Below the pieces are notes generated by a model. It was given only the letters and a program-made list of their open reading frames with translations. It made no database searches and had not been told where the DNA came from. From NCBI GenBank assembly GCA_044348425.1, contig JBIKSV010000001.1, positions 2,079 to 66,078 of the forward strand: a stretch of DNA of 64,000 nt, in the 5' to 3' direction. Both the position numbers and the translations under genes were made by a program. Positions 23,624-49,673 of the stretch are shown here, one piece after another. Position 1 is the stretch's first letter; each line of letters starts with the position of its first letter. The stretch is from Candidatus Planktophila sp. (GTDB taxonomy: Bacteria > Actinomycetota > Actinomycetes > Nanopelagicales > Nanopelagicaceae).

Positions 23624-25680
<2,057 letters not shown>

Positions 25681-25681
<1 letters not shown>

Positions 25682-28351: not shown

Positions 28352-28366
28352 CCCCGCACTAACAAC

Positions 28367-28439
28367 GGGGACCTAGCTCAATTGGTAGAGCACCGCCTTT
28401 GCAAGGCGGGGGTTAGGGGTTCGATTCCCCTGGTCTCCA
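28367..28439 (+). tRNA. tRNA-Ala (TGC), CCA not encoded
   Basis: GGGGACC...GGTCTCC acceptor stem with G3:U70, anticodon arm ccgcc-ttTGCaa-ggcgg. Confidence 0.96.
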
Positions 28440-28500
28440 CAACGTAGTGAAGGAGAGCGTAAAGATGGTCTCCACAACGAAGTGAAAAAGATAGTAAAAA
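28431..28500. repeat. 35-bp-period direct repeat duplicating the tRNA-Ala 3' end
   Basis: tggtctccacaacgtagtgaa (28431-51) versus tggtctccacaacgaagtgaa (28466-86), 20/21 identical; the rest of each unit is degenerate. Confidence 0.85.
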
Positions 28501-30326: not shown

Positions 30327-30365
30327 TTCACTCCAATGAGGTAAGGGGCATTGATGAAACTATAG

Positions 30366-30401
30366 GAAGAGAACCGGGCCGAAACCGACCCGGTTCTCTT
30401 C
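30366..30401 (-). other. intercistronic stem-loop after the binding-protein gene (mRNA stabiliser or attenuator)
   Basis: gaagagaaccggg-N10-cccggttctcttc, a 13-bp perfect stem. Confidence 0.7.
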
Positions 30402-30434
30402 ACTATTTAGTTATTGCTATTTATTTACTGCTCT

Positions 30435-31739: not shown

Positions 31740-31858
31740 TACTGCTCCTATCATTTTTGCTTAATGAAAGATCCAAGCGACCCGATGTCTCTTGGAGTAG
31801 ATCCCATCAAACTAACTTCGCTGGCAGACCGAAAATGTGAGGCTCGCCACTTCACAAA

Positions 31859-31926
31859 TTGAATCCTTTCAACTGAGGTAGAAATTACTGGCCTCGGCGA
31901 GGGTGCGTCAAGGATATTTTTATAAC
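31859..31926 (-). promoter_or_regulatory. promoter and LacI-type operator of the ABC operon
   Basis: Minus strand GTTATAAAAA..TTGACG (31911-06)-N18-TAATTT (31887-82)-N9-TTGAAAGGATTCAA (31872-59). Confidence 0.75.
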
Positions 31927-32536: not shown

Positions 32537-32564
32537 TTTCTACACTTTTTTGTTTATAAAAAGT

Positions 32565-33122
32565 ATGTTGAAGCCGCGCAGCACCGTAATTGCTCTGATT
32601 GCGGTGATCTGCGCCTTCTATCTTTGGGAACTTCTTGATGCAGGAATTATCAACACTTTGGCCTTGGTAAACATCGAGTATTTAAGCGCTAGCAATGAGT
32701 GGTATCGCCTCTTTACTGTGGCGCTTTTGCACGACACATCATCATCAATCCCGATTCACTTGGCATTTAATATGATGGCAATTCATTCGTTGGGCTCACC
32801 GATTGAAAGTTTATTAGGGCGCACACGCTTTCTGATTATCTTCTTCGTATCTCTACTTACCGGATCACTTACATCGGCTTTCTCACTTGGTTGGAACGGG
32901 TACTCAATAGGGGCATCTGGCGCTGTTTTTGGGCTCTTTGGCGCATTTATTGCACTCGGTCGCAGACTCGGATCAGAGATAAAGGGGATAGTGATCATCG
33001 TGGTCATTAATTTTGCACTCGGCTTCACAATCGGCGGAGTTGATTGGCGCGCCCACTTAGGTGGGCTCGTTGGTGGACTCTTGATTACAAAGGCATTATT
33101 GGTTTTTAACGCTGCGAAGTAA
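32565..33122 (+). CDS. rhomboid intramembrane serine protease
   Basis: WYRL, HLAFNM, GASG, AHLGG. Confidence 0.92.
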   Translation: MLKPRSTVIALIAVICAFYLWELLDAGIINTLALVNIEYLSASNEWYRLFTVALLHDTSSSIPIHLAFNMMAIHSLGSPIESLLGRTRFLIIFFVSLLTGSLTSAFSLGWNGYSIGASGAVFGLFGAFIALGRRLGSEIKGIVIIVVINFALGFTIGGVDWRAHLGGLVGGLLITKALLVFNAAK

Positions 33123-35147
33123 AATCTGCGCAACATCTAAAACTTCAACATCTGATTGACGGGCTGTCATGCCATCTCCAACCATGATGCGACAGAACGG
33201 ACAGGCCACCGCAACTTCAGGGGCACCAGTTGCAATAGCTTCATCAACACGATTGAGATTGATACGAGAACCTAAACTCTCTTCCATCCACATGCGTCCT
33301 CCGCCGCCACCGCAACAGAATGAGCGCTCTTTATTTCGCGGCATCTCTTCAACATCGCATCCGGATGCTTCAAGCAGTTCACGAGGTGGCGCATAAATTT
33401 GATTGTGGCGACCGAGATAACAAGGATCATGGAAAGTAATTTTTTGGTCAGCTTTATGCGGACTTGTCTTTAACTTTCCTTCTTTAACTAATGTGTTCAG
33501 AAGTTGAGTGTGGTGCAACATCTCAAGTTCGTAGCCACTCTGCGCATAGTCGCGACCGATTGTTGTAAAGCAATGAGGGCAAGTGACAACAACCTTTTTC
33601 TTACCTTTAGGGCGATCACCGAATGTCTCCTTAAATGTTTCAATATTCTCTGCTGAAAGAATTTGATAGAGAAATTCATTTCCTGATCTGCGAGCGGGGT
33701 CTCCGGTACATGTTTCACGCTTTCCAAGAACGGCAAAGTTAACGCCTGCCATATGCAAGAGTTCTGCAACCGCCTTGGTAGTTTTCTTAGCGCGATCTTC
33801 ATAAGCGCCAGCGCATCCAACCCAGAAGAGGTATTCAACTTCTTCAGGGAGTTCACCACTTACCACGCGAACCGGGAAGTCACATTCTGCAATCCAACCT
33901 TCACGATCTTGCTTATTGGCACCCCAAGGGTTACCAGCCTTCTCAAGGTTTTTAAATGTTCCACCGAGCTCTTTTGGAAACTCTGATTCAACTAAGACCT
34001 GGAATCGACGCATGTTTACAATGTGATCAACATGCTCGATATCAACTGGGCACTCATTTACACATGCGCCACAAGAGGTACATGACCAGAGGACATCTTG
34101 CGAAATGGGAGCACCGGTACCAACAAGATTTTCAGTTTCAACAACGCCTGCCATAGCGTGATCGCGCATCGCCATAATGAGAAGTTTTGGAGAGAGTGGT
34201 TTTTCGGTATGCCATGCAGGACATTGAGATTGGCAACGTCCGCACTCGGTACAGCTCGTCATATCGAGCAGACCCTTCCAGGAGATATCTCCGCGTGTGC
34301 CTAGACCAAAGACATCATCTTCTGCGGGATCTTCAAAATTAACTGGCTTACCTTTAGATAGCATTTCTGGCAACGCACCGAGAGCTGGTTGGTCAATATC
34401 GCGCTTAAAGTAAATATTGAAGAATGCTAAGAAGCGGTGCCACGCGACGCCCATTGTTAAATTAGTTGAGATAACGATAAACCACGCCATCGAGACGAGA
34501 ATCTTGATTGTTGCAACAATAAAGATTGCATTCTCAATCGAGGCAACGCTCCATGATGAGAAGAAAGAGACCGCTGGCCAAGAAATTGCATAATGCCAGT
34601 TCCAGGATTCTTTACCTTGCAGTGCACCCTCAAGTCCACGAAGGGCAATTACACAGAAGACGATGGCAAGAATTGTTGCCTCAACATAGTAAGCACGCCC
34701 TGAGTTTGACCCTGCAAAACGTGATGTTCGACCTTTATGAATGAAGCGGGTGGCTTGTCTAATTCCAATTAAGGTAACGATTCCGATTCCGGTAAGCGCT
34801 GCAATCGTTTCAGCGAAGAGTTCGTAGCCAACAAAGTGGCCGATAATTGGAAGTGCAAAATGTGGGTCAAGCAATTGTCCGTATGCAGTAACTAGTGTTC
34901 CAAATAAAGCACCGAAGCCGACCATGACAAACCAATGTGCAATACCGGTAGCTGTGAAGTTGAGCATCTTGGTATGGCCAAGGACTTCAACCAACATATT
35001 CTTTGTGCGCGCTGCGCGATCGCCAGAACGAGTCGGATCAGGTTGCTGTTTGCGATAGAGAGCAATTAACGTGCGAACGCTCTTAGCAAAGAGTCCGATA
35101 GCCACAATTGTGATGGCATATGTAACGAGAGCAATAGCTAGCTTCAT
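33096..35147 (-). CDS. membrane Fe-S oxidoreductase (FadF/EtfD-like: TM domain, 2x[4Fe-4S], two CCG domains)
   Basis: CTECGRCQSQCP, CTSCGACVNECP, CTGD, CCGGGGG; has its own TACCCT -10 7 nt before the ATG. Confidence 0.88.
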   Translation of the reverse strand: MKLAIALVTYAITIVAIGLFAKSVRTLIALYRKQQPDPTRSGDRAARTKNMLVEVLGHTKMLNFTATGIAHWFVMVGFGALFGTLVTAYGQLLDPHFALPIIGHFVGYELFAETIAALTGIGIVTLIGIRQATRFIHKGRTSRFAGSNSGRAYYVEATILAIVFCVIALRGLEGALQGKESWNWHYAISWPAVSFFSSWSVASIENAIFIVATIKILVSMAWFIVISTNLTMGVAWHRFLAFFNIYFKRDIDQPALGALPEMLSKGKPVNFEDPAEDDVFGLGTRGDISWKGLLDMTSCTECGRCQSQCPAWHTEKPLSPKLLIMAMRDHAMAGVVETENLVGTGAPISQDVLWSCTSCGACVNECPVDIEHVDHIVNMRRFQVLVESEFPKELGGTFKNLEKAGNPWGANKQDREGWIAECDFPVRVVSGELPEEVEYLFWVGCAGAYEDRAKKTTKAVAELLHMAGVNFAVLGKRETCTGDPARRSGNEFLYQILSAENIETFKETFGDRPKGKKKVVVTCPHCFTTIGRDYAQSGYELEMLHHTQLLNTLVKEGKLKTSPHKADQKITFHDPCYLGRHNQIYAPPRELLEASGCDVEEMPRNKERSFCCGGGGGRMWMEESLGSRINLNRVDEAIATGAPEVAVACPFCRIMVGDGMTARQSDVEVLDVAQILLRSVKNQ

Positions 35148-35164: not shown

Positions 35165-36577
35165 TTAGCGCGGGATAAATTCCTTTGAAGTAAAGGAATT
35201 CTTAATGAGAGCCCTCGCCTCTGTGAGGTCTTTGACCACACCGGCTGCAATTGCTTGCACGGCAATATTTCCAAAGAGAGTCGCCTCGACCGGGCCGGTC
35301 TTTACGGGCACTCCACAGATATCAGCGGTAATTTGGTTGAGCAGGTCATTCTGTGAGCCCCCACCGAGGATATGAATCAGGTTGATCTGTCGCCCAGAGA
35401 CAGTGGCGATCTCGGCGAGCGTCTTTTTGTAGGCGTGGGCAAGGCTATTAAAGATAGTAATCGCAAATTCGCCTGGGGTCGTTGGGGCGGTTAGGCCGCG
35501 ATCACGACAGTAATCAACGATGCGCTTTGGCATATCTCCCGGAGGTGCAAAGAGGGGATCGTTGGGATCGATAAGAGTTGAAAATCCGCGAGCTGCTTCT
35601 GCTTGGGCAATAAGAGCAGGCATCTCTATTTCGGCACCGCTTTCACGCCAAGTGCGACGACATTCTTCTAATAACCACATACCAGTTACATTTTTAAGGA
35701 CGCGCACCGTTCCCTCAACACCTAATTCATTTGTCACATTAGCTGCAAAGGCGGCGTTCGATGTAAATGGGCGCTCGCTCTCTATTCCCACAAGTGACCA
35801 TGTACCGCTGGATATGTATGCCTCCACTTCGCGATTACCAAATGGAACACCCGCAATCGCAGATGCAGTGTCATGTGATGCTGCAGCTACAACGTTGATT
35901 CCATCGAGGCCCGGATAACCTGAAACTTTGCCGATATGAGTGCCTGGTTCATGAAGTGCTGAAAAGAGCGAAAACTTTAGATCTGCTAACTCAATAAGTT
36001 CTTTATCCCAAGTTCGAGTAGCTGTGTTGAGTGCTTGAGTGCTTGAGGCGTTAGTTACTTCAGTTGAGATTACTCCAGAGAGAATAAAGTTAATCAAGTC
36101 AGGGAGCATCAAGAATTTATCTGCGTTCTTATACTCAGGCAAAGAACGTGATGCGTAAAGTTGGTAGATAGTGTTAAAAGTTAAGAACTGAATACCTGTT
36201 GTTGAATAAATCCGCTCTTTACCCAACTTTGCAATCAGCTCTTTAGAGGCAATCTCATTACGGAAATCCCGGTAAGCGTGGATATCACCGATTAACTTTT
36301 TATCACTCGAGATAAATCCATAATCAACAGCCCACGAATCAACAGCAATACTTATTGGCTTAGAGATTTTTGCTGCCTCATTGAGTCCAGTTAGAACTTG
36401 CGAGAAAATGAAATCCCAATCCCAAAGAAGTGAACCGTTGGATTGTTCGGCTACTTCGTGAGAGAAGCGGTGAACGATTGAGAGCTCGATTGAACCTTTA
36501 TCTACGCTACCGATAGCAACGCGTCCGCTGGTCGCGCCGAGATCTACCGCTAAGAATTGGTCCATTTTTGAGCTCAA
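35165..36577 (-). CDS. rhaB: rhamnulokinase
   Basis: AVDLGATSGR, DSWAVDY, SHDTASA, ISSGTWSL, GGGSQN. Confidence 0.92.
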   Translation of the reverse strand: MSSKMDQFLAVDLGATSGRVAIGSVDKGSIELSIVHRFSHEVAEQSNGSLLWDWDFIFSQVLTGLNEAAKISKPISIAVDSWAVDYGFISSDKKLIGDIHAYRDFRNEIASKELIAKLGKERIYSTTGIQFLTFNTIYQLYASRSLPEYKNADKFLMLPDLINFILSGVISTEVTNASSTQALNTATRTWDKELIELADLKFSLFSALHEPGTHIGKVSGYPGLDGINVVAAASHDTASAIAGVPFGNREVEAYISSGTWSLVGIESERPFTSNAAFAANVTNELGVEGTVRVLKNVTGMWLLEECRRTWRESGAEIEMPALIAQAEAARGFSTLIDPNDPLFAPPGDMPKRIVDYCRDRGLTAPTTPGEFAITIFNSLAHAYKKTLAEIATVSGRQINLIHILGGGSQNDLLNQITADICGVPVKTGPVEATLFGNIAVQAIAAGVVKDLTEARALIKNSFTSKEFIPR

Positions 36578-38614
36578 TTAGCGCATAAATGCAGCTGCTA
36601 CTCCGCTATCAACCGGAATATGCAACCCAGTGGTGAGTTGAAGATCGGATGCACAGAGAACAAATACAGCTGCAGCAATATTCTCAGGGAGAACCTCGCG
36701 TTTTAAAATTGAGCGCTGCGCGTAATATTCGCCAAGCTTCTCTTCTTCAACACCATAAACAGCAGCGCGATTAGCGCCCCATCCGGATGAGAAGATGCCT
36801 GAACCGCGAACAACTCCATCAGGATTTACGCCATTGACGCGAATCTGATGCGCACCGAGCTCAGCAGCAAGAAGTCTTACCTGATGAGCTTGGTCAGCCT
36901 TAGTGGCGCCGTATGCGATGTTATTTGGTCCAGCAAAGATCGAATTCTTTGAAGAGATGTAGACGATGTCGCCACCCATATTTTGGGCAATCATCGCCTT
37001 TGCTGATTCACGAGACATCAAGAATGAACCGCGGGCCATTACATCGTGCTGTAAATCCCAATCAGCAACAGTTGTTTCGGTCAGTGGCTTACTTAATGAG
37101 AGACCAGCGTTATTGACAACGAGATCAACGCCACCAAATGCAATTGAAGCAGCATGCACTGTAGCAATAATTGCTTCTTCATCCGTGACATCCACCTTGA
37201 CGGCGATAGCACGATCAGCATTTCCGATTTCAAGAGCAACTGCAGTTGCTGCATCAAGATCGCGATCGGCAACGACGACACAGGCACCTTCAGCTGCCAA
37301 GCGAAGGCTTGTTGCTTTTCCGATACCTGAACCGCCACCTGTAACAATTGCCACACGACCAGCAAGTGGCTTTGGCTTTGGCATGCGACGAAGTTTCGCC
37401 TCTTCAAGCTCCCAGTATTCAATTCTGAACTTTTCAGATTCATCAATTGGCTCATAAGTTGATACTGATTCAGCCCCACGCATTACGTTGATTGCATTGG
37501 TATAGAACTCACCTGCAACTCGAGCGGTCTGCTTATCTTTTCCGTAGCTAAACATTCCAACGCCAGGAACCAGAATGATTAATGGATCAGCACCACGCAT
37601 GGCAGGAGAGTCTGCGGTGGCATACTTTTTATAGTAATTGGCGTAGGTTTCACGATATCCAACATGGAGCTCATGTGCGCGAGCGATAATCTCTTCAACT
37701 GAGGCGCTCGAAGGGGTGTCGATTACCATCGGAGAAATCTTTGTTCGCAAGAAGTGATCAGGACATGATGTTCCGAGCGCAGCAAGGCGCCCTAGCTCTG
37801 CGTGTGAAATGAAATCTAGAACGACATCGCTATCGTTAAAGTGACCGAGCATTGGATTATCTTGTGATGCGATTCCACGTAGCGCTGGTGCAAGTAAAGC
37901 TGCCTTTGCTAGACGAGCCTCAGGCGCCAGGGGAGCTCTCTCTTTAACTGCTGCACCAAAAGGATCCTTCTTTCCTTTGCTTGCTAAAAACTTTTCGGCT
38001 TTTTCAATTGCATCGATAGAACGCTTCTCGCACTCATCAGATGTATCCGCCCATGTTGTTAAGCCATGTCCGCCGAGGATTGCTCCCTTGGCTTTTGGAT
38101 TCTCTTTGGCAATAGCGGCAATATCGAGACCGAGTTGAAAACCAGGGCGACGCCAATCAACCCAGAGAATCTCATCGCCAAAACATTCGCGAGTAAGAGC
38201 TTGACCATCTGCAGCTGTTGCTAGAGCGATAATTGAATCTGGGTGTAGGTGATCTACGTGTGCAGTATCAACCAGCCCGTGCATTGCAGTATCAATTGAC
38301 GGCGCTGCGCCACCACGACCAAAAGTGCAGTAATCAAAGAGTGCAACCATTTCATCTTCGTGTTCGACGCCACGATAAACGTTAACGAGTGCACGCATTC
38401 GATCAAGATAGAGCGCTGCTAGACCCGACTCTTTAAGAGTTCCTAGATCACCGCCAGAGCCTTTGACGTAGAGAACATCTACTTTTTCTCCTGTAGATGG
38501 ATCCTGAGCTTCACCTTTGGCAGATGTATTGCCGCCTGCGTAGTTGGTGAACTTTGGGTTACTCCCTAGTCGATTACTGCGACCTAATAACTCTTCAACG
38601 CTCTTCTTACTCAT
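36578..38614 (-). CDS. rhaEW: bifunctional rhamnulose-1-phosphate aldolase / short-chain (lactaldehyde) dehydrogenase
   Basis: GGNTSAK, HVDHLHPD, CPDHFLRTK aldolase half fused to an SDR domain (TGGGSGIG, NNAG, YGATK). Confidence 0.92.
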   Translation of the reverse strand: MSKKSVEELLGRSNRLGSNPKFTNYAGGNTSAKGEAQDPSTGEKVDVLYVKGSGGDLGTLKESGLAALYLDRMRALVNVYRGVEHEDEMVALFDYCTFGRGGAAPSIDTAMHGLVDTAHVDHLHPDSIIALATAADGQALTRECFGDEILWVDWRRPGFQLGLDIAAIAKENPKAKGAILGGHGLTTWADTSDECEKRSIDAIEKAEKFLASKGKKDPFGAAVKERAPLAPEARLAKAALLAPALRGIASQDNPMLGHFNDSDVVLDFISHAELGRLAALGTSCPDHFLRTKISPMVIDTPSSASVEEIIARAHELHVGYRETYANYYKKYATADSPAMRGADPLIILVPGVGMFSYGKDKQTARVAGEFYTNAINVMRGAESVSTYEPIDESEKFRIEYWELEEAKLRRMPKPKPLAGRVAIVTGGGSGIGKATSLRLAAEGACVVVADRDLDAATAVALEIGNADRAIAVKVDVTDEEAIIATVHAASIAFGGVDLVVNNAGLSLSKPLTETTVADWDLQHDVMARGSFLMSRESAKAMIAQNMGGDIVYISSKNSIFAGPNNIAYGATKADQAHQVRLLAAELGAHQIRVNGVNPDGVVRGSGIFSSGWGANRAAVYGVEEEKLGEYYAQRSILKREVLPENIAAAVFVLCASDLQLTTGLHIPVDSGVAAAFMR

Positions 38615-38618
38615 CTAA

Positions 38619-39785
38619 TTAAGCACCCCAACCAGCTTGGTTTCCACCGACACGTTCTGTTGCAATCTTTGCGGCATATCCGCTTGCGGCATAAGCCTTC
38701 ATTGGTTCTGGATCAATGCCTTTATCACTTCTCCATTCGCGCAAAAGTCCACGAACATCAGTGTTGTAAGCATCCATTAAGCATTCGTGTGCAGCCAAAA
38801 CATCACCAGCACGTTGTGCAGCCTTAAGTGCATCTTGATCGACAAGAACTGCTTTTGCTACTGCCTCTTGGACATTCATAATCGAACGAATCTGACCAGG
38901 AATCTTGGCTTCAATGTTGTGGCATTGATCGAGTACATATGAAACTGGAGTTCCAACATCAAAACCACCGTTGATATTTACCTCATGCATAATGCGGAAG
39001 AGCTGGAATGGATCTGCTGCTCCAACAATCAAATCGTCATCTGCATAGAAACGTGAGTTGAAGTCAAATGCCCCAAGGCGCTTGGCGCGCAATAAACCTG
39101 CGACGATGAATTCAATATTTGTTCCTGGTGCATGGTGTCCTGTATCAACAACAACCATCGCCTTTGGACCGAGCGCCATGCAGTGCAATAGTGATGTGCC
39201 CCAGTCAGGAACATCAGTGTGATAAAAAGCTGGCTCGAAGAATTTGTATTCAAGCAACATACGCTGATGATCGCCTAGGTGTGCATAAGCCTGCTGAAGT
39301 GAATCAGCTAAACGGTTCTGGCGATCTGCGATGTCATCTTGGCCTGGATAGTTTGTTCCGTCAGCAAACCAGAGCTTGAGATCTTGCACGCCGGTCTGGT
39401 TCATAATGTCGATACAATCGATTAGATGCTTTACTGCATTTGCTCGCACTTTTGGATCTGGGGCGCAGACTGAACCCAAGATGTATTGATCATCTTGAAA
39501 TGTATTGGAGTTAATTGTTCCGAGCTTTACACCCAGGCTCTGTGCGTGGGCGCTAAAGTCTTTGTAATCTTCGACTTTATCCCATGGGATATGAAGAGCA
39601 ACTGTTGGAGCGGCACCGGTGTACTTATTTACCTGCGCGGCATCTGCAACTTTTTCGTAAGGATCGCGCGGAACTCCTGGTTGCCCGAAGACCTTAAAGC
39701 GCGTACCTGAGTTTCCGTAAGCCCATGAAGGAGTTTCGACTCCTAAGCGATTGAGGACGCTCTTGACTTCACTGTTGCTTGCCAT
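38619..39785 (-). CDS. rhaI: L-rhamnose isomerase (RhaI type)
   Basis: ETPSWAYGNSGTRF, LHIPWD, EYKFFEP, DTGHHA, DQCHNIE. Start moved to ATG 39785 because the longer ORF runs through the operator. Confidence 0.92.
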   Translation of the reverse strand: MASNSEVKSVLNRLGVETPSWAYGNSGTRFKVFGQPGVPRDPYEKVADAAQVNKYTGAAPTVALHIPWDKVEDYKDFSAHAQSLGVKLGTINSNTFQDDQYILGSVCAPDPKVRANAVKHLIDCIDIMNQTGVQDLKLWFADGTNYPGQDDIADRQNRLADSLQQAYAHLGDHQRMLLEYKFFEPAFYHTDVPDWGTSLLHCMALGPKAMVVVDTGHHAPGTNIEFIVAGLLRAKRLGAFDFNSRFYADDDLIVGAADPFQLFRIMHEVNINGGFDVGTPVSYVLDQCHNIEAKIPGQIRSIMNVQEAVAKAVLVDQDALKAAQRAGDVLAAHECLMDAYNTDVRGLLREWRSDKGIDPEPMKAYAASGYAAKIATERVGGNQAGWGA

Positions 39786-39801
39786 TGTTGCCACCATTTC
39801 A

Positions 39802-39857
39802 TTGAATCGGTTCACTTCCAATATGCTCACCGTAAGGCGATTTCAAGCGTGAGTCAA
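39802..39857 (-). promoter_or_regulatory. promoter and LacI-type operator of rhaI-rhaEW-rhaB
   Basis: Minus strand TTGACT (39857-52)-N17-TACGGT (39834-29); operator TTGAATCGGTTCAC at 39802-15. Confidence 0.75.
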
Positions 39858-39934: not shown

Positions 39935-40933
39935 ATGAGCGTAAGCCTTCGAGATGTCGCGAAATCAGCGAAAGTCTCAGTGGGTACCGTTTCGAATGTA
40001 CTTAATCGCCCCGAGATCGTTGCCGAAAAAACATTGCTTCGGGTACGAGAAACAATTAAAGAGCTGGGTTTTGTCCCAAATGGTTTCGCCCGGCAACTGC
40101 GCTTTGGCAATAGCCGCACAATCGGATTGATTGTTCCTGATGTAGCAAACCCATTCTTTACTGAAGTTGCACGCGGTGTAGAAGATGGTGCCAATAAACG
40201 AGAGTATGCAGTTTTTCTCTGCAATTCAGATGAATCGGTAGTAAAAGAAGAGCGCTACATAAATGTTTTGATTGAACAACAAGTGCGCGGTGTTCTATTT
40301 GCACCTAGCGATATCAAATCAAATCGCATGGATGAGATGAAGAGCCGCGGAATTTCAGTCACTCTTTTAGATAGAGAGCAGAAAGGCAACGATCATTGCT
40401 CTGTCTCGGTCGATGATGTTTATGGCGGACATATTGCCATCGAATATCTTGGAGAATTAGGACATCAGAACATTGCCTGGGTCGCAGGTCCTGAAAGCAT
40501 TCCGCAAGTTGCAGATCGAGGCGTAGGCGTTGCAAAAGCAGCAAAAGCCGGAGGACTAAATATTGAGACGATACGAGTTCAGCTGCAGAACTCTGCACAA
40601 GGAGAAGAAGCGGCAAAGTTGATTCTTCAACTTCCCAAGATGCCGACCGCAGTTTTCTGCGCCAACGACCTCTTGGCGCTCGGATTAATGCGTGGGCTGA
40701 TGGCAGCTAAAGTAAAGGTGCCAGATCAGGTTTCTATTTTGGGTTATGACGACATCAATTTTGCATCGTCAGCAGCAGTACCGCTCTCATCAATCTCGCA
40801 GCCCGCTTATCAGATGGGTGTTACTGCAGCAGATTTATTGTTAAGCGAGTGCGAGGACGGCGAAAACCATCAGCACCAACAGATTCGATTCCAACCAAAA
40901 CTCGTAGAGCGCGAATCTACAAAGAAGCGTTGA
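39935..40933 (+). CDS. LacI-family transcriptional regulator of the rhamnose locus (RhaR-like)
   Basis: HTH SLRDVAKSAKVSVGTVSNVLN, NPFF, FCANDLLA, GYDD, LVERES; divergent from rhaI. Confidence 0.92.
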   Translation: MSVSLRDVAKSAKVSVGTVSNVLNRPEIVAEKTLLRVRETIKELGFVPNGFARQLRFGNSRTIGLIVPDVANPFFTEVARGVEDGANKREYAVFLCNSDESVVKEERYINVLIEQQVRGVLFAPSDIKSNRMDEMKSRGISVTLLDREQKGNDHCSVSVDDVYGGHIAIEYLGELGHQNIAWVAGPESIPQVADRGVGVAKAAKAGGLNIETIRVQLQNSAQGEEAAKLILQLPKMPTAVFCANDLLALGLMRGLMAAKVKVPDQVSILGYDDINFASSAAVPLSSISQPAYQMGVTAADLLLSECEDGENHQHQQIRFQPKLVERESTKKR

Positions 40934-40978
40934 CCACACATCGTTTCGTTGCTATCTTTTCAGCTTGAATCGGTTCAA
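40930..40978 (+). promoter_or_regulatory. promoter and LacI-type operator of the ferredoxin-reductase-P450-NHL operon
   Basis: TTGACC (40930-35)-N17-TATCTT (40953-58, preceded by TGc)-N6-TTGAATCGGTTCAA (40965-78). Confidence 0.8.
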
Positions 40979-41014
40979 AGAAGCCTGATCAAAGTAGATA
41001 TTGTGGAGAAATCA

Positions 41015-41206
41015 ATGAAAGTTCGCGTAGACCGTGAAGCATGTATCGGCGCTGGACAATGTGCACTCGTTGCAGGATCTATCTTTGATCAAGATGATGA
41101 AGGATTAGTAATTCTCCTCGTCGAAACTCCTGGCGAAGATTCACATGCAATGGCGCGCAAGGCTGCCACTCTCTGTCCTGCAAAAGCTATCTCCATCGAG
41201 GAGTAA
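41015..41206 (+). CDS. [3Fe-4S]-type ferredoxin (P450 partner)
   Basis: 63 aa from ATG 41015 (GGAG SD): CIGAGQC...LCPAKAI. Confidence 0.9.
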   Translation: MKVRVDREACIGAGQCALVAGSIFDQDDEGLVILLVETPGEDSHAMARKAATLCPAKAISIEE

Positions 41207-41209
41207 GAA

Positions 41210-42382
41210 TTGGCGCCAGCACGTGGGTCAGGAACCATTATCGCTGGCGGATCATTGGCAGGATTTACAACTGCGCAATCACTTCGCTCGGCCGGATATT
41301 CAGAGCGGATACAAATTTTTAGCGGCGAAGATACTTTGCCTTATAACAGACCGCCACTTTCAAAACAGATTCTTTTGGGCACGTGGAGTAGCGAAAAAAC
41401 TATGATTGCAACTCCAGAACTGATGGAGAAGTTAGAGGTTGAATTTCATTCTGGGCAGAACGTTGATTCACTTTCGACCGAAAACCAAGAAGTTACCGTA
41501 GGAAGAGACACATTCGAATTTGAGAAGCTGGTAATTGCTACAGGTGTTCGTGCACGGCAATTAAGCCACACTGCAACATCAAAGCGAACTTTTACATTTA
41601 GAACACTTGCAGATGCTCTTGCAATAAAGGGTTTAATCCCCGAGTTAAGAACAGTAGGAGTTATCGGTTCAGGAGTCTTGGGTTGTGAAATTGCATCTGC
41701 TCTCTCAACGCTAGGCAAAAAAGTTACGATTGTGGATCAAATACCTTTGCCAAATCTTCCTATGACAGGTGGACATGTATCCGGCAAGATTCACGAACTC
41801 TTTACTGCTAACCAGGTAGATATGCGAATGAATACGCAGATTGAAAGTATCTCTGAAGGCGAAAAGTCAGTCAGAATCGAGCTGAAAGATGGCGCTGTAT
41901 TTGAGGTAGATATTTTGATTATTACTATCGGCTCAATAGCAAATACAGAGTGGTTACAGTCCAGCGGAATAGATATCTCTAACGGAGTTCTCTGTGATGC
42001 TAAGGGAGAGGCTAAAGAGAATATCTTTGCAGTGGGAGATGTAGCGCGCTGGTGGAGCAACTCAGCGGGTGCTGCGCTTAAGCGAGAAAATCAGAGTTCG
42101 GCAATTGAGCAAGGCCTTGCGGTTGGCCACTTTATTGCCACCGGTGAAGAGAGCGCTATCTCTCTTCCATTCTTCTGGAGCGAAATATTTGGCGCCAAAA
42201 TTACGCTGACCGGAACCCTAGAGCCAGAACTTCCCTTTGAGGTATTGCATGGCAGTATCGATGAAGATACTTTTGTGGGAGCTACCTTCCGCGGTGATCA
42301 GATGACAGGCGTTATTGGTTGGAATATGTCGAAGGAGTTTCGACAAGAACGTAAAAAAATGGAGGAGAGAGCAAATGGATGA
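41210..42382 (+). CDS. FAD-dependent NAD(P)H:ferredoxin reductase
   Basis: GGSLAG, PYNRPPLSK, ATG, GSGVLGCE, AVGDVA, PFFWS. Confidence 0.9.
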   Translation: MAPARGSGTIIAGGSLAGFTTAQSLRSAGYSERIQIFSGEDTLPYNRPPLSKQILLGTWSSEKTMIATPELMEKLEVEFHSGQNVDSLSTENQEVTVGRDTFEFEKLVIATGVRARQLSHTATSKRTFTFRTLADALAIKGLIPELRTVGVIGSGVLGCEIASALSTLGKKVTIVDQIPLPNLPMTGGHVSGKIHELFTANQVDMRMNTQIESISEGEKSVRIELKDGAVFEVDILIITIGSIANTEWLQSSGIDISNGVLCDAKGEAKENIFAVGDVARWWSNSAGAALKRENQSSAIEQGLAVGHFIATGEESAISLPFFWSEIFGAKITLTGTLEPELPFEVLHGSIDEDTFVGATFRGDQMTGVIGWNMSKEFRQERKKMEERANG

Positions 42383-43580
42383 AGTCAAAGATCAAGTGAG
42401 CGCATGTCCTGCACATAACGTTCGCCGGATTCCAAATGACGGAACCCCTCTCTGTCCTTCACCCACCTTCGCTATTTGGCGAGATGAGGGTGCAGCAACT
42501 CCGCTCGAGTATTCAGATGGTCATCAAGGAATGATCATCAATCGTTACGAACTTGCTCGTTTGATTCTGGAAGATAAGCGATTTAGCCAATCTCCACCTC
42601 GGATGCCGGCGCATCACGGTGAAGTGCTTATAACTGGATACGAACTAACTTCGGGAAGTGAATTAGATGCCGGAAATGTTCTCGGCTTAGATGGCGAGCA
42701 GCACGCTCGAATCCGCAGAACAATTTTAAATCGCTATTCAGTGAAGTCAGCGCGCAGCTATGAGAGCGATATGAAAGAAATTATCGCTAAACAATTTGAG
42801 TTTTTAAAGAGCCAACCGCGCCCAGTTGATATCACCAAGCATTATTCACAACCAATTTCTGCTGCTGGTCATATGCGTGTACTCGGTATCCCAGAGCAAT
42901 TCCGCACGCGATACTCAGAACTTTTTGTCGGAGAGTCAGAGACAGAAGAGAAGGTTGCATTTCTCCGCGAAGTCCTTGCGGTGAAAAAGGATTTATTAGC
43001 TGAAGATGTCTTAAGTGACTTACTTCGCACCGATTTAACTGTTCCTGAAATTGAGGGATTAACGCTCTCATTGATGGTTTCCGGTCGAGATTCAGTTGCG
43101 TACATGATCTCAACAGCGATGACAGCGCTCTTAAACAATCCCGATCAACTAGAAGCACTCAAAGCTAACCCTGAGTTAATACATGGCGGTATGGAAGAAT
43201 TTATGCGCGTAGGCGCCATGTTCCTCACTGTATTCCCACGTACCGCCACTGAAGATGTTGAATTTGGCGATGTTAAAATCCCTGCTGGGCAATCAGTTTC
43301 AGTATCTCCGGTTGCGGCAAATCATGATGAACGCCAATTTGAAGACCCAGATCGCTTTGATTTATCTCGTGATGCCTTCGGCCACATGGGCTTTGGTCAT
43401 GGAATTCACGGATGTGTGGGACAACAAGTCGCTCGTGTAGAGATTAAAACTGCGGTTATGCAACTTATTTCTAACACACCGGGCTTGCACTTGATTAAGG
43501 CAGAACAAAATGAGCCAATGCCATTTGCTCATCCAGTTGCTACCTATGAAGCCGGCGCTGTGATTGTTGATTGGAATTAA
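42375..43580 (+). CDS. cytochrome P450
   Basis: EEFMR (ExxR), DPDRFD, heme loop FGHGIHGCVG (Cys codon 43413); start ATG 42375 with GGAGGA SD. Confidence 0.95.
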   Translation: MDEVKDQVSACPAHNVRRIPNDGTPLCPSPTFAIWRDEGAATPLEYSDGHQGMIINRYELARLILEDKRFSQSPPRMPAHHGEVLITGYELTSGSELDAGNVLGLDGEQHARIRRTILNRYSVKSARSYESDMKEIIAKQFEFLKSQPRPVDITKHYSQPISAAGHMRVLGIPEQFRTRYSELFVGESETEEKVAFLREVLAVKKDLLAEDVLSDLLRTDLTVPEIEGLTLSLMVSGRDSVAYMISTAMTALLNNPDQLEALKANPELIHGGMEEFMRVGAMFLTVFPRTATEDVEFGDVKIPAGQSVSVSPVAANHDERQFEDPDRFDLSRDAFGHMGFGHGIHGCVGQQVARVEIKTAVMQLISNTPGLHLIKAEQNEPMPFAHPVATYEAGAVIVDWN

Positions 43581-43581
43581 T

Positions 43582-44475
43582 GTGAGCGCGAAGTTTAAGA
43601 TTTTATTCGAGGGTGATGCAGCGCATGGCTGGATGCATTCAGGTATTGCAATTCTCAGCGACGGGCGTTTAGTTTTTGAGGCAGCAGGTGGCCGTGGTCT
43701 TGTTTTTCTTGATCTAGCCACTGGCAAGTCAGAGAAGATTGCAGTCGATATAGCAGTCGCACACGGCATAGCAACGACATTCGAATCCGGCGATGATTTT
43801 ATTTGGGTATGCGATCCAGGCGAGCAAGCACCTGGCAAAGTTGTTAAAGTCGATATCAAAGGCAACATTGTTGATGATCTGAAACCGCCCGCAGCATCTC
43901 CTCTCTCAAAAGAGAAGTGGCGACCAACTTCTGTTGCTGTTACTGAAGACGGCGACATTTGGATTGCAGATGGATATGGGTTGAGTCTCGTTCACCGATA
44001 TTCTCCTAATGGAGATGTGATTACTCTCGATGGTAGCGAATCAGGTTTAAAATTTAATTGTCCCCACGGTGTTGCAGTTGATGACCGCGGATCTCAAATG
44101 AGAATCGCCGTGGCAGACCGCACCAACAAGAGAGTCCTACTCTTTGAAAAAGATGGGCGATACATTCGTTCAATCGCTGCCGAGATAATGACTAGTCCTT
44201 CCTCAATCGCCGCATCTGGTGACAATCTATTTATAACGGATCTCCGCGGAGCAATTCTTTCGATATCAAGTGATGACCAAGTCAGCGCGGTTATCCCTTC
44301 AGCCCATATTGATGGGAGAGAGGGCTGGCCAAATGCATTGGTTGATGGCGAAAGCGTCGCCCCGATGATTCAAGCTGGTGAGATCAATAGTCCACACGGA
44401 ATCGTCGCCTCGCAAGATGGCTCGGTCTATGCAACCGAGTGGTACTTCGGCGGGCGGGTTATCTCGCTCATCTAG
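43582..44475 (+). CDS. NHL-repeat beta-propeller protein, peptidylamidoglycolate lyase (PAL)-like
   Basis: AHGI, PTSVAVTEDGDIWIADGYG, FNCPHGVAVD, VADRTNKRV, SPHGI; no signal peptide; probable GTG start at 43582. Confidence 0.75.
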   Translation: MSAKFKILFEGDAAHGWMHSGIAILSDGRLVFEAAGGRGLVFLDLATGKSEKIAVDIAVAHGIATTFESGDDFIWVCDPGEQAPGKVVKVDIKGNIVDDLKPPAASPLSKEKWRPTSVAVTEDGDIWIADGYGLSLVHRYSPNGDVITLDGSESGLKFNCPHGVAVDDRGSQMRIAVADRTNKRVLLFEKDGRYIRSIAAEIMTSPSSIAASGDNLFITDLRGAILSISSDDQVSAVIPSAHIDGREGWPNALVDGESVAPMIQAGEINSPHGIVASQDGSVYATEWYFGGRVISLI

Positions 44476-44494: not shown

Positions 44495-44564
44495 GTTATA
44501 AAAAAAGGATTGACGCAGGCGCAAGCTCCCCACTAAATTCGTCCATATTCTTGAAACGATTCAA
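44495..44564 (+). promoter_or_regulatory. promoter and LacI-type operator of the GH78 pair
   Basis: GTTATAAAAA..TTGACG (44510-15)-N18-TAAATT (44534-39)-N11-TTGAAACGATTCAA (44551-64). Confidence 0.8.
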
Positions 44565-44589: not shown

Positions 44590-47289
44590 ATGTCCAATCT
44601 GCCAGCACTTACTCAGCGCGATGATCAGAGTCGAGTAATCGGTCTACAGACTCAGTTTTCAGCAGACCTCATTGGTCTGCCAATTGTTGATCCTTTGCTG
44701 ACGTGGCAGATTTCTAGTGATCGCGCAGATGCGGTGCAAGTCGGTTATGAAATTTCATCTATTGGTGAAGATGGTTCAATCATTACATCACCTGCTGTTG
44801 CAAGCTCTGAACAAATCGAGATTCTTGCTTCAGGTCACATTGCCAAAGCGCAAGAGATTCGCCGCTTACGTGTTCGCATCGCAACGCAGCATGGTTGGAG
44901 CGATTACAGCCCAATCGCAACATTTGAGACAGGTCTCGCATCCGGAAATGATTTAGTAGGACGTGCTATTGGCGACAACTCACTTCACTCAGCTCCTTCA
45001 CCAATTTTGCGTAAAGAATTCTCAACAAAGAAGAGTGTTGCTAAGGCGCGCCTCTACGCAACATCTCACGGTATTCATTCACTTTATCTCAATGGCGTAA
45101 ATGTCACAGATGAGTATTTCACTCCAGGTTGGACCGCATTCGATGATCGCGTTACATATTTGACCCATGATGTCACTCGTCTAGTTCAAGATGGCGCAAA
45201 TTGTTTTGCAGCTGAACTCGGTGATGGTTGGACTCGTGGCAAATTTGGATTTATGAACATCTATGACAATTACGGCACAACTATCTCTTTACTTGCACAG
45301 CTTGAAATTACCTATACAGATGGCAGCAAGGATGTCATTGCAACTGATGAAAGCTGGAAAGTTTCAACTGGCGAGATTCAATTTGGCGATATCTACGATG
45401 GATCACATATTGATTTCACTAAGGAGCAGAAGGGCTGGAAACTAGCTGGCTTTAACGATGGTTCGTGGAGCGCACCAACAATCCACACCATTAAGCGCGA
45501 AAATCTATTGCCACGCACTTCTACTCGCGTCATCAAGATTGAAGAGTTCGCTTCAAAGGTAGTCGATTCAAATAACAGAACACTTCTGGATTTTTCACAG
45601 AACATCTCTGGTTGGGTTCGTCTGGTTGTTGACGGCAAGAAGGGCGATGTCATCACAATTCGCCATGCTGAAGTTCTAGAGCCAGGACCAAACCTACATA
45701 CAGCTGCGCTTCGTACTGCAAAGGCGACTGATATCTACACACTCGGACATGATGGTCGCAGTGTTATCGAACCAAAATTTACATTCCACGGTTTCCAATT
45801 TGCTGAAGTTACCGGTCCAGCTAAGTTCATATCTGCAACAGGCGTGGCCATCTCTTCTGCTAATGAGCGACGCGGTCACTTCACATCTTCTGATGCGCGA
45901 CTTAATCGTCTCCATCAGAATGTTGTCTGGTCTATTCATGACAACATGGTTTCTGTCCCTACAGATTGCCCACAGCGCGATGAGCGCCTCGGTTGGACTG
46001 GTGATGCGCAAGCAATCGCAACAACTGCAAACACACTCTTTAAGATCGATTCATTCTGGCGCAGCTGGTTGCAAGATCTTGCAATCGACCAGAAGCGATT
46101 TGGCGCAGTTGGCGCAGTGGTTCCAGATATTTTATCTAAGCACCCATCGCCTGCTTCAGAGGAAGAAGCATGGATCATTACTGACCGCGCCGGATGGGCA
46201 GATGCTGCAACTATCGTTCCGATGGCCGCATATGAATCTTATGGAAGCCTTTCAACGCTAAAGCAACAGGTCGAATCAATTCGCACTTATGTAAAGGGAC
46301 TCTCAGATCGCCGCAAGGGTGAGAAGTTCTTGCCAGAAGAGTTCCAGTTCGGTGACTGGTGTGATCCAGATGCACCTGTTGATCGTCCTTGGCTCTCAAA
46401 GGTAAAGGCGCAGTTTGTAGCTAACGCTTTCTTTGCAAACACAGTTCAGCTAGCTGCTGATGTTGAAGCACTTGCTGGCGACGCTGCTCATCAGAAGGAG
46501 TACACAGAACTAGCGGCAACACTTCGCAAAGATATTTGGGAGCACTTTGGTGCAGAGGCGAAAGAGACAACCGCTGGTTGCTCAATCGCAATTGAATTCG
46601 GCATCGTTCCAGAATCAGAGCGTGCAGCTGTTGCTCAAATCTTGAGCGATAAAGTTATTGCAGATCAAGGAAAGATCACAACCGGCTTCCTTGGAACTCC
46701 GCTGATTTTGCATGCTCTCTCTAAGAACGGTCACTTCAGCGCGGCATACACAATGCTTATGCGTCGCAAGGTTCTTTCATGGCTCTACCAAGTTGATCAG
46801 AAAGCAACAACAATTTGGGAGCGCTGGGATGCAATCTATGAAGATGGTTCTATTCACAAGGGACAGATGTCTACTGCGAGCGAAGAACAAGATAATCCTT
46901 CAATGATTTCATTTAATCACTATGCATACGGCGCTGTAATTGATTGGGTCTACCGCAACGTTGCAGGTATTGCTCCAACAGTTAAGAATCCGGGATATCG
47001 CCACATTACTTTCGCACCACGTCCGGGTGAAGGTTTCTCTTATGCATCTGCATCAGTGAATACACCTCTTGGCGTTGCTTCTATCGATTGGCAGATCGTC
47101 GATGGCGGCAATCTCACTGCAAAAGTTGTGGTGCCATTTGGATCAAAGGCAGTTTTGGATTTCCCAACAACCTCTGGTTCTACAGTTCGCGTTAATGGAA
47201 AAGCTGTTTCAAATAAGCATGAAGTGAGCCATGGTCACTACGACATTCTCGTTTCAGCACCTGCAGTAGCTTCTTTCAAAGTCGCATAA
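44590..47289 (+). CDS. alpha-L-rhamnosidase (GH78), cytoplasmic
   Basis: ARLYATSHG, DFSQNISG, FTFHGFQ, PTDCPQRDERLGWTGD, FGDW, TTIWERW, SFNHYAYG. Start moved to ATG 44590; no signal peptide. Confidence 0.93.
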   Translation: MSNLPALTQRDDQSRVIGLQTQFSADLIGLPIVDPLLTWQISSDRADAVQVGYEISSIGEDGSIITSPAVASSEQIEILASGHIAKAQEIRRLRVRIATQHGWSDYSPIATFETGLASGNDLVGRAIGDNSLHSAPSPILRKEFSTKKSVAKARLYATSHGIHSLYLNGVNVTDEYFTPGWTAFDDRVTYLTHDVTRLVQDGANCFAAELGDGWTRGKFGFMNIYDNYGTTISLLAQLEITYTDGSKDVIATDESWKVSTGEIQFGDIYDGSHIDFTKEQKGWKLAGFNDGSWSAPTIHTIKRENLLPRTSTRVIKIEEFASKVVDSNNRTLLDFSQNISGWVRLVVDGKKGDVITIRHAEVLEPGPNLHTAALRTAKATDIYTLGHDGRSVIEPKFTFHGFQFAEVTGPAKFISATGVAISSANERRGHFTSSDARLNRLHQNVVWSIHDNMVSVPTDCPQRDERLGWTGDAQAIATTANTLFKIDSFWRSWLQDLAIDQKRFGAVGAVVPDILSKHPSPASEEEAWIITDRAGWADAATIVPMAAYESYGSLSTLKQQVESIRTYVKGLSDRRKGEKFLPEEFQFGDWCDPDAPVDRPWLSKVKAQFVANAFFANTVQLAADVEALAGDAAHQKEYTELAATLRKDIWEHFGAEAKETTAGCSIAIEFGIVPESERAAVAQILSDKVIADQGKITTGFLGTPLILHALSKNGHFSAAYTMLMRRKVLSWLYQVDQKATTIWERWDAIYEDGSIHKGQMSTASEEQDNPSMISFNHYAYGAVIDWVYRNVAGIAPTVKNPGYRHITFAPRPGEGFSYASASVNTPLGVASIDWQIVDGGNLTAKVVVPFGSKAVLDFPTTSGSTVRVNGKAVSNKHEVSHGHYDILVSAPAVASFKVA

Positions 47290-47291
47290 AA

Positions 47292-49673
47292 ATGTCATAT
47301 CAGCTTACAGAATCTTCCCCATATCAATATTTCTGGAGCGATGGAAAGCCTCGCGCACAATGGATGCAGGTGCGCGAGGAAGTTGTTGCAGAGCGGGCTG
47401 AGCGTCCGGCATATTTTCTCCGTAAAGAATTTGATGTTTCAACAACAGTAAAAAGAGCATTAATTAAAGCAACCGCTCAAGGCATCTACAATATTTATAT
47501 TGATGGTAAACGCATCGGAGATAAGGTTTTAACCCCCGATACAACAGATTACCGTTTTCATATCGCCGTGCAGGAATACGATGTCACCCGTACTCTCGAG
47601 CCAGGAAAACATACAGTTGTAATTGAGTTAGCAGATGGGTTCTTTCGAAGCTCAACTGGTGTCTGGCGTGTAGATCTCAATTATGAGAATCACGTGGCAG
47701 CGCTCTTCGAAATGGATATCGACTATGCAGATGGAGCTCACCAATCAGTCGATAGTGATATGACTTGGAAAGTTTCACCTTCTCACATCCTTGCTGCCGA
47801 TTTAATGGAAGGCCAAGTTGAAGATCGTCGTCTTTTTGATCCTGCTATAAAGATGAATGGTTTTGATGATTCGACTTGGGGCACACCTATTTTGGGTAGT
47901 ACAGATGCCGCATTAGTAAGAGAGTTTGCACCACCAATCCGAGCGATTGAAGAGCTCAAACCAGTTTCAATTAAAACTTTAGGTGATGGCGCGATTGTTA
48001 TTGATTTTGGTCAGAATATTAATGGTTGGATAAAACTTTCAAATTTAGGCCCACGCGATACGAAAATCGAGGTAAAGCACGGTGAGGGTCTTTATCCAAA
48101 TGGCCACGTAAATATGGAGAGCATGATTCTCTCACTGCCTGGAGCAGCAAGTGATACAGGTGGGCAGCGAGCATTCGTGACTTCAAGTGGTGTGAATGGT
48201 GATCTCTTTGAAAATTACTTTACAACTCAAGGTTTTCAGTTTGTTGAAATCATCGGGCACCCGGGTCCAATTACTGCAGAAGAGATAAGTGCGGTCGTTG
48301 TACATTCAGATCTTCGTCGCACAGGGTGGTTCACCTCCGATAACGAGAACCTCAATTGGTTGCATGAAGCGACAGTCTGGTCATTCCGAGACAATATGTG
48401 TGGAGTTCCCACAGATTGTCCAACCCGAGAACGCGCTGGATGGACTGGAGATTGGCAACTCTTTTCACCAACCGCAGCATTTTTATATGACGTCCTTGAT
48501 GCCACGCGAAAATGGATGGCAGATGTTGTGGTGGGTCAGACACCTGATGGTGTAATCCCGAACATCGCCCCATCGGATAAGAAAATGCGCCCTGAGGGTG
48601 AGTACTCACTCATGAACGGTTCAGCAGGTTGGGGAGATGCAATCGTTTCTACTCCGCTGGATATGTATAACGCTTATGGCGACCTCAAATTAGCGCGTGA
48701 ATCTTGGGGCGCTATGGTGAAGTGGATGGATTTTGCTTATGCACGAGCAAAGAATTTGCGCCATCCTGATCGTGCCGCAGCGCGCCCTGTACCTGCCGAG
48801 CATGAAGAATTTATCTGGGATGCTGCATTTCACTGGGGTGAATGGCTTGCAGCAGGAGACGCCCTCCCTACTAAACCCGAAGAGTTTTTCACACCTGATC
48901 ATGGAATTACTGCAACTGCCTACATGTACCGCTCTACTTTGCAGATGATTGAGATTGGAAAATTATTAGGCAAATCAGATACAGAATTAGGGAAATATTT
49001 CGATATCGCTCCAAAAATTAAAGATGCCTGGCAAAAAGAGTACATCCGTTCAAGTGGACTTCTTTCAGAAGAAACTCAAGCAAATTACTTGCGAGCACTG
49101 CACTTTGATTTAGCACCAAATGAACTACGAGATGGTATGGGCAAGCGACTTGTTGCAATCATTCGCGAAGCCGGAAATCACTTAGGAACGGGCTTTCTTG
49201 CTACACCGTATCTTCTTACTACGCTTGCAGATGTTGGCTATACCGATGTTGCCTATGACTTATTGTTTCAAGATACCGTGCCATCATGGATGTACATGAA
49301 AAAGAAAGGCGCTACAACAATTTGGGAAAGCTGGAATGGTATTGATGATGATGGAAAGCTTGAAGCATCGCTCAACCACTACAGCAAGGGTGCGGTGATT
49401 TCATTTTTGCATAGATACATCGCTGGATTAAAACCACTGGCTCCCGCATATAAGAGTTTTGTAGTAAAGCCACATTTGAGCAGCAAGGTCAATGAAATTG
49501 ATCTCAAGCTAGATTCGCCAAACGGTCGCGTCGAAGTTCAATGGCAATCCAAGAATGGAAAATTTGATATTCGAATTCTGGTTCCGGCCGGATCAACTGC
49601 TACAGCAGAGCTACCAGATGGCAGTTCTCACGCTTTAACTTCAGGTGAAAACAAACTTAGCTGCGCTCTGTAA
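47292..49673 (+). CDS. alpha-L-rhamnosidase (GH78), cytoplasmic, lacking the first N-terminal domain
   Basis: DFGQNING, PTDCPTRERAGWTGD, HWGEW, TGFLAT, TTIWESW, SLNHYSKG. Confidence 0.92.
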   Translation: MSYQLTESSPYQYFWSDGKPRAQWMQVREEVVAERAERPAYFLRKEFDVSTTVKRALIKATAQGIYNIYIDGKRIGDKVLTPDTTDYRFHIAVQEYDVTRTLEPGKHTVVIELADGFFRSSTGVWRVDLNYENHVAALFEMDIDYADGAHQSVDSDMTWKVSPSHILAADLMEGQVEDRRLFDPAIKMNGFDDSTWGTPILGSTDAALVREFAPPIRAIEELKPVSIKTLGDGAIVIDFGQNINGWIKLSNLGPRDTKIEVKHGEGLYPNGHVNMESMILSLPGAASDTGGQRAFVTSSGVNGDLFENYFTTQGFQFVEIIGHPGPITAEEISAVVVHSDLRRTGWFTSDNENLNWLHEATVWSFRDNMCGVPTDCPTRERAGWTGDWQLFSPTAAFLYDVLDATRKWMADVVVGQTPDGVIPNIAPSDKKMRPEGEYSLMNGSAGWGDAIVSTPLDMYNAYGDLKLARESWGAMVKWMDFAYARAKNLRHPDRAAARPVPAEHEEFIWDAAFHWGEWLAAGDALPTKPEEFFTPDHGITATAYMYRSTLQMIEIGKLLGKSDTELGKYFDIAPKIKDAWQKEYIRSSGLLSEETQANYLRALHFDLAPNELRDGMGKRLVAIIREAGNHLGTGFLATPYLLTTLADVGYTDVAYDLLFQDTVPSWMYMKKKGATTIWESWNGIDDDGKLEASLNHYSKGAVISFLHRYIAGLKPLAPAYKSFVVKPHLSSKVNEIDLKLDSPNGRVEVQWQSKNGKFDIRILVPAGSTATAELPDGSSHALTSGENKLSCAL

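Follow-up and report, generated by a model that had tools for sequence, protein, structure and literature searches.

A rhamnose-linked cytochrome P450 cassette in Candidatus Planktophila and its candidate role in sugar O-demethylation

O-methyl ethers block sugar catabolism. CYP236A, a cytochrome P450, demethylates 6-O-methyl-galactose by hydroxylation, after which the product collapses spontaneously (PMC6292453; this and all other papers given by PMC number are cited from excerpts of their text), and CYP236A clusters carry a dehydrogenase and an esterase whose function is needed but unexplained (PMC10033563). Searches of the open-access literature turned up no other P450 sugar O-demethylase, nor any report of a rhamnose-linked P450, and the excerpts of a pinitol paper (PMC9788770) describe no bacterial P450 demethylase. 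Here, we describe a four-gene unit encoding a ferredoxin, a ferredoxin reductase, a P450 and an NHL propeller protein in the rhamnose gene cluster of Candidatus Planktophila sp., a small-genome actinobacterium (assembly GCA_044348425.1; 1.46 Mb, 84% complete, about 46% GC). Coordinates refer to a 64,000-nt stretch of contig JBIKSV010000001.1, hereafter the window. The original prediction, made from the letters of the window, had placed this coupled unit between a LacI-family gene and two GH78 genes, and gene coordinates confirm the arrangement (Table 1). The P450 is probably an O-methyl-L-rhamnose O-demethylase, with the 3-O- or 2-O-methyl sugar as the most likely substrate; its mode of action is likely that of CYP236A, a family to which it does not belong, and a rhamnose-linked P450 family is likely new to the open literature.

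The P450 family and its redox partners

Judged by sequence, the P450 belongs to a real, undescribed actinobacterial family outside CYP236A, CYP105 and CYP107, with CYP236A set apart by match listings rather than by pairwise alignment. Identity to the P450s returned by fold search, CYP105 and CYP107 included, was 22-31%, below the usual P450 family line of 40%, and the structures of the CYP236A enzyme P450ZoGa (6G5O and 6G5Q) were neither among the best 60 PDB sequence matches nor seen among the listed fold matches. When 1.8 billion representatives were searched with a profile, eight full-length members scored 410-537 bits and the next full-length P450s 281 bits, a gap that marks the family as compact. 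The hosts of its best 80 genome loci (43-92% identity) were Actinomycetota metagenome-assembled genomes, Microbacteriaceae, Brachybacterium, Jiangella, Nonomuraea and others. C347, E275/R278 and D239 were each kept in at least 95% of 149 family sequences, position 240 was S in 122, N in 19, T in 5 and A in 3, and the I-helix reads (S/A)GRDSV. The P450 model had a mean predicted local distance difference test (pLDDT) score of 70, with residues 74-106 (substrate loops) below 50. CYP236A binds its sugar with V58, E62, Q70 and F73 of the B-C loop. In the present family this loop is variable and R76 is invariant; the model pLDDT there is below 50. The closest solved relative was StvP2 (PDB 6M4P; 189 bits, 30-31% identity), which hydroxylates an O-methyl group (PMC7481197); at such identity this is a weak hint in favour of an O-demethylase.

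Neighbouring genes were counted in the best 80 of 108 P450 loci from genomes and, tallied apart, in 79 metagenome loci that partly duplicate them, using tblastn with our own fixed bit-score cut-offs and codon-model gene recall. Counts did not draw on first-pass open reading frame (ORF) calls, some of which were antisense shadows where GC was high, and regions of relatives overlapping loci already counted were left out. A ferredoxin gene was present in 60/80 genome loci and a reductase gene in 57/80; in the window both adjoin the P450, with distances of 3, -8 and 1 nt within the operon, so that the last 8 nt of the reductase gene also belong to the P450 gene. The host assembly holds five P450 genes, and the window ferredoxin and reductase were the only close homologues found, so this redox pair may serve several P450s. 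A host paralog (G000:C79:343-1521; L195) is 64% identical to the window P450, has SGRDN at the acid-alcohol site and no adjoining redox genes, and is followed by a GH3 gene.

Linkage to rhamnose genes and regulation

By curated NCBIfam models, the genes flanking the cassette are a true rhamnose pathway, with RhaI and RhaEW over their cut-offs and RhaB just under. The first refuting condition set by the original prediction, that P450 homologues show no association with rhamnose genes, did not hold: a rhamnose gene was found in 49/80 genome loci (catabolic or transport in 35, GH78 in 24), rising to 40/57 among those of at least 15 kb, and in 32/79 metagenome loci (17/23 of at least 15 kb). This linkage was scattered over many tree branches, with rearranged gene orders. 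Within the genus, RhaI occurred in 6/7 P450-bearing genomes versus 14/60 overall; in an even, family-level draw of 301 genomes around genome G101, the P450 occurred in 7 and RhaI in 172, including 7/7 P450 bearers. For the 31 loci with no rhamnose gene, 26 genomes were searched (the other five loci came from assemblies already listed), and 23 of these encoded RhaI elsewhere. On these gene patterns the P450 looks like an optional extra for organisms that use rhamnose. That the cassette merely travels with a carbohydrate island and takes no part in rhamnose catabolism is the least probable explanation we weighed: it does lie at unrelated sites in some genomes, but it has its own conserved operator, its linkage recurs in rearranged orders across families and it co-occurs with RhaI at the genome level.

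The promoter TTGACC-N17-TATCTT claimed ahead of the four-gene unit, with an operator 6 nt on that matches the rhaI copy at 13 of 14 bases, was recovered by scans and is conserved in close relatives. The operator pattern TGAANCGNTTCA occurred exactly at 39803, 40966 and 44552, ahead of rhaI, the ferredoxin gene and the first GH78 gene. This 10-base pattern had six exact copies in the 1.46 Mb assembly versus 1.5 expected, and three of the six fell within a single 4.75-kb span inside the window (expected 0.005 per 5 kb); with one mismatch allowed, the window held 8 versus 3.3 +/- 1.8 expected. Two operators were absent from the original prediction, the exact copy before the GH78 pair and the one-mismatch copy 5' of the binding protein gene of an ATP-binding cassette (ABC) transporter. 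The same pattern recurred in rha clusters of relatives, and in three close relatives (L023, L103 and L104, two of them nearly identical) the -35 box, extended -10 box and operator stood as unchanged islands amid a varying spacer, the operator varying only at its two free positions. The promoter consensus scan of the window gave 15 sites versus 25.5 expected, so the consensus is by itself no evidence. The remaining exact operator matches in the assembly lay at G000:C59:3642, C78:3291 and C80:5361; that on C78 precedes another LacI gene, and that on C59 is in a setting with no rhamnose gene.

Co-regulation through the LacI operator, as first predicted, holds in that the operator is present and locally conserved, but it is local to the lineage, and most relatives have an adjacent AraC gene instead. 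LacI-operator control conserved across the P450 family was rejected, the operator being found in 5/80 loci. An AraC-family gene lay within 5.2 kb in 50/80 genome loci, usually divergent from the ferredoxin gene, and was not found in the host assembly. We infer that the usual inducer of the P450 operon is a compound other than rhamnose, and that the host lineage swapped its AraC activator for the rhamnose repressor. One metatranscriptome run held 7% of the sequence words; its contigs, which speak to presence only, fell partly on the ABC, rha and GH78 genes, with none over 39952-43271.

Proposed reaction and accessory proteins

As the rhamnose isomerase pathway is oxygen-independent, the P450 must act upstream of it. 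At least 18 loci encode the mutarotase RhaM or the monosaccharide transporter RhaS (over cut-off) near the P450, often without GH78, which points to a free sugar as substrate. Two minimal loci (L047 and L065) have only AraC, ferredoxin, reductase and P450 genes among the rha genes, and from these loci, which have no accessory enzyme, it seems that the P450 product can be handled without another enzyme of its own. Both patterns suit a modified rhamnose that is taken up free and breaks down spontaneously once oxidised, and O-demethylation meets both. Aromatic ring-cleavage families were absent from the 85 recurrent cluster representatives and 115 further neighbours scanned. Of the two options offered by the original prediction, these observations favour O-demethylation over oxidation of an aglycone or linker freed by GH78 (a saponin, flavonoid or lipid), in which the rhamnose link would reflect a shared parent glycoside. 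The latter would suit the 24/80 loci with GH78 and others with GH3 or GH116 glucosidases, closest solved P450s that act on macrolides and like molecules, and a separate AraC gene, which fits an inducer other than rhamnose. We nevertheless consider it unlikely, since RhaS, RhaM and RhaI occur without any glycosidase in many loci, no aromatic or steroid catabolic gene recurs among the neighbours scanned, and the host assembly is just 1.46 Mb.

Under O-demethylation, rhamnosides would enter via the ABC transporter and then be cut by GH78, and electrons would pass from NAD(P)H through the reductase and ferredoxin to the P450, which would hydroxylate the methyl group of O-methyl-rhamnose. The resulting sugar-O-CH2OH hemiacetal would collapse to rhamnose and formaldehyde, a breakdown that the PAL-like metalloprotein would speed and for which, in other hosts, an aldo-keto reductase and a creatininase-fold hydrolase would stand in; freed rhamnose would enter the isomerase pathway encoded alongside. 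Both 2-O- and 3-O-methyl-rhamnose are present in Spirogyra walls and in moss and fern arabinogalactan proteins (PMC7612518). The substrate could also be another methyl sugar of the same glycans, such as 2-O-methyl-fucose or -xylose, or the P450 could attack a ring carbon to give methanol and a keto-sugar repaired by a reductase. In L060, L062 and L064 the P450 lies beside apiosidase-like, GH42 or GH78, and apiose-type catabolic genes, and L032 has an apiosidase-like gene, a rhamnogalacturonan II-like setting; the SGRDN paralog clade may use another substrate, and the aldo-keto reductase is a regular partner (24/80). Such variants are improbable, as the enzymes that recur for the later steps are specific to rhamnose, the clusters show no recurrent pathway for fucose or xylose, and the reductase was undetected in 56/80 loci.

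The NHL protein was encoded in 15/80 genome loci and the creatininase-fold protein in 23/80, always with the aldo-keto reductase. These two modules shared no locus (0/80 genome, 0/79 metagenome), a pattern that is partly phylogenetic, and 42/80 genome loci had neither. The NHL model was a confident six-bladed propeller (pLDDT 93.9) that aligned with PAL (3FW0) over 259 residues (Z 26.4, root-mean-square deviation 2.9) at 24% identity, the highest among 50 rows; TRIM NHL domains had a higher Z (29) and a lactonase tied with PAL. Y132, H162, R180 and H272, and likewise H61, were invariant in 15/15 NHL proteins, and the first four fall opposite rat PAM 653-654, 690, 706 and 786 by match end-points (the 162/180 match being weak, E 0.054). 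We take Tyr654 and Arg706 of PAL to be catalytic and His690 and His786 to be zinc ligands; His585 and Arg533 are presumably also in the active site, with H61 a plausible counterpart of His585 and H19 without an assigned partner, this region lying outside the sequence matches. Attempts at a residue alignment of the NHL protein with PAL gave other propellers first. The claim of a PAL-like lyase within the P450 system thus survives as to fold and residue register, but the protein is an optional accessory and not part of the core.

The creatininase-like protein keeps creatininase-aligned motifs and passes no curated model cut-off; a phylum-wide draw found it in 0/401, a result that carries no weight, having no positive control. 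In the 301-genome draw it had four matches besides the centre, all with the aldo-keto reductase and beside a different P450 family, which uses flavodoxin and whose members are 25-30% identical to the window P450 and 52-87% identical among themselves. Two of these loci are flanked by Gfo/Idh/MocA dehydrogenases and sugar ABC genes, and one by sugar kinase, aldolase and ABC genes. What the pair tracks, then, is a P450 in a sugar locus and not rhamnose as such, suggesting that it processes a product shared by these P450s. These gene patterns point to two alternative ways of clearing a hydroxymethyl product, by the NHL protein or by the reductase and creatininase-fold pair, and the dehydrogenase and esterase of CYP236A clusters (PMC10033563) form a parallel to the latter. 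Loci of the second P450 family (L212:4506-7463, L214:9777-12689, L213:4991-8509 and L215:6652-11331) combine P450, flavodoxin and reductase, fused into a 970-985 amino acid chain in two genomes, with the same aldo-keto reductase and creatininase-like pair; an HtaA-domain protein occurs in three and inositol-type catabolic genes at two loci, making this family a candidate O-methyl-inositol demethylase.

Since each accessory module belongs to a family whose members act on C-N bonds, the P450 might be an N-dealkylase whose stable carbinolamide needs a PAL-like lyase, or oxidation and deformylation by a reductase and an amidohydrolase; a dimethylargininase-like gene flanks 7/80 loci. That neighbour is restricted to one clade, however, the 42 loci with neither module suit a self-collapsing product, and we know of no abundant N-methyl rhamnose conjugate. 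Even with the precedent of an oxygenase and lyase pair for methylguanidine (PMC12508155), N-dealkylation appears very unlikely.

Several results weigh against O-methyl-rhamnose demethylation. The co-occurrence with RhaI (p = 0.0004, 0.04) is overstated because related genomes are non-independent. Rhamnose genes are missing from the loci of two clades near the host (8 + 8 loci), among them the closest clade, which is about 80% identical, and one of the two adjoins the dimethylargininase-like gene. Just 5/80 genome loci have the operator within 300 bases 5' of the P450 unit; the nearest solved P450s are of CYP105/107 type, acting on large hydrophobic natural products; and in the Spirogyra fractions (PMC7612518) O-methyl-rhamnose accounts for only about 1-2 mol%. 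Mycothiol-dependent formaldehyde dehydrogenase, HxlA and formate-tetrahydrofolate ligase were not found in the 84% complete host assembly, where FolD and MshA were the only one-carbon or mycothiol genes found among those searched, and the same dehydrogenase was not found in 5 relatives. One CYP236A host likewise has no ribulose monophosphate route (PMC9400963), so a missing formaldehyde sink is not fatal to a demethylase.

If correct, this would be a second, independently evolved family of P450 sugar O-demethylases, in small-genome freshwater actinobacteria and soil Microbacteriaceae, supplying the step, so far lacking, by which a methylated sugar found in algae, mosses and ferns enters catabolism, identifying a source of formaldehyde or formate in lakes and offering a regioselective deprotection catalyst for carbohydrates. 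A bolder and rather improbable reading is that several unrelated actinobacterial P450 families, the present one for rhamnose and others next to fucose-isomerase-like and inositol-type genes, uncap O-methyl sugars with interchangeable clean-up, either by a PAL-type metallolyase cleaving the sugar hemiacetal or by a reductase and hydrolase via a formate ester to formate, with no free formaldehyde. This would amount to thiol-independent one-carbon disposal and to the first native role of a bacterial PAL-like enzyme in sugar catabolism.

Surrounding genes and comparison with known systems

Table 1. Features of the P450 cassette and the surrounding rhamnose cluster in window coordinates.
Feature	Coordinates	Strand	Evidence and remarks
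Single-cluster ferredoxin, 63 amino acids	41015..41206	+	Fer4_15 / PF13459, E 3e-12; start from comparison with relatives
FAD-dependent ferredoxin reductase	41210..42382	+	Pyr_redox_2 + Reductase_C
Cytochrome P450, 401 amino acids, uncharacterised family	42375..43580	+	Heme Cys347, E275-x-x-R278, D239-S240 acid-alcohol pair
Six-bladed NHL propeller	43582..44475	+	Invariant H61, Y132, H162, R180, H272; all but H61 line up with PAL active-site positions
LacI-family regulator, inferred actinobacterial RhaR	39935..40933	+	Domain match; PMC3870299
L-rhamnose isomerase RhaI (ORF limits as called)	38619..39830	-	TIGR02635 604 bits, cut-off 531; probable start 39785
RhaEW bifunctional aldolase/dehydrogenase	36578..38614	-	TIGR02632 1001 bits, cut-off 568
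Rhamnulokinase RhaB	35165..36577	-	TIGR02627 472 bits, below cut-off 528
Fe-S/CCG oxidoreductase	33096..35147	-	No model over cut-off; likely role in lactate oxidation
GH78 alpha-L-rhamnosidase a	44590..47289	+	Domain match
GH78 alpha-L-rhamnosidase b	47292..49673	+	Domain match; 29% identity to GH78 a
Oligosaccharide ABC binding protein and two permeases	28567..31871	-	Homologues present in many P450 loci
Predicted P450-operon promoter TTGACC-N17-TATCTT, extended -10 (TG)	40930..40958	+	-35 box overlaps lacI stop codon
Predicted LacI-type operator TTGAATCGGTTCAA	40965..40978	.	Begins 6 nt past -10 box
Operator copy 5' of rhaI	39802..39815	.	13/14 bases shared with 40965-40978 copy
Promoter-like sequence at 44510-44539 with third operator copy at 44551-44564, 5' of GH78 pair	44510..44564	+	Pattern and promoter scans
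One-mismatch operator 5' of ABC binding protein	31860..31871	.	Pattern scan

Cyclophilin and rhomboid genes (32027-33122) part the ABC transporter from the remaining rhamnose cluster, and gyrB, gyrA, tRNA-Ile and tRNA-Ala (23684-28440) come just ahead of the ABC genes of the rhamnose cluster; within the window, neither a dnaA nor a dnaN ORF is annotated 5' of gyrB. Two tandem RhaM-like matches lie at G000:C56:118-820 of the host assembly, on another contig than the rhamnose cluster. The host also encodes a third P450 family (L196; G000:C40:76-5350) beside an SDR, a fucose-isomerase-like protein and a sugar ABC permease; this family occurred in 11/150 genus genomes, adjoined by the fucose-isomerase-like gene in 4/11 and by an SDR in 11/11.

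Like the Actinomycetales RhaR regulon (Rodionova 2013, PMC3870299), the locus combines a LacI regulator, a palindromic operator, RhaI, RhaEW and RhaB, oligosaccharide transport and rhamnosidases; the main text of that paper, whose supplements list the regulon members, makes no mention of 'P450' or 'cytochrome'. StvP2 differs from the window P450 in serving the biosynthetic tailoring of a large antibiotic. The NHL protein shares with PAL of rat PAM a six-bladed propeller, Tyr, Arg and His residues in register and a place after an oxygenase, but it is bacterial and partnered with a heme P450 instead of a copper monooxygenase. Methylguanidine demethylation by MgdH/MgdL (PMC12508155) similarly couples an oxygenase to a dedicated lyase releasing formaldehyde, although there the oxygenase is a 2-oxoglutarate dioxygenase, the substrate is N-methylated and the setting is not a sugar pathway. 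As in the window, CYP236A of marine Bacteroidetes sits with a ferredoxin and reductase in a glycan-use locus, with a dehydrogenase and hydrolase nearby, and the same chemistry may be at work in both. The two differ in phylum, in accessories and in sugar, CYP236A acting on 6-O-methyl-D-galactose, a primary methyl ether, whereas a secondary methyl ether is predicted for the window P450.

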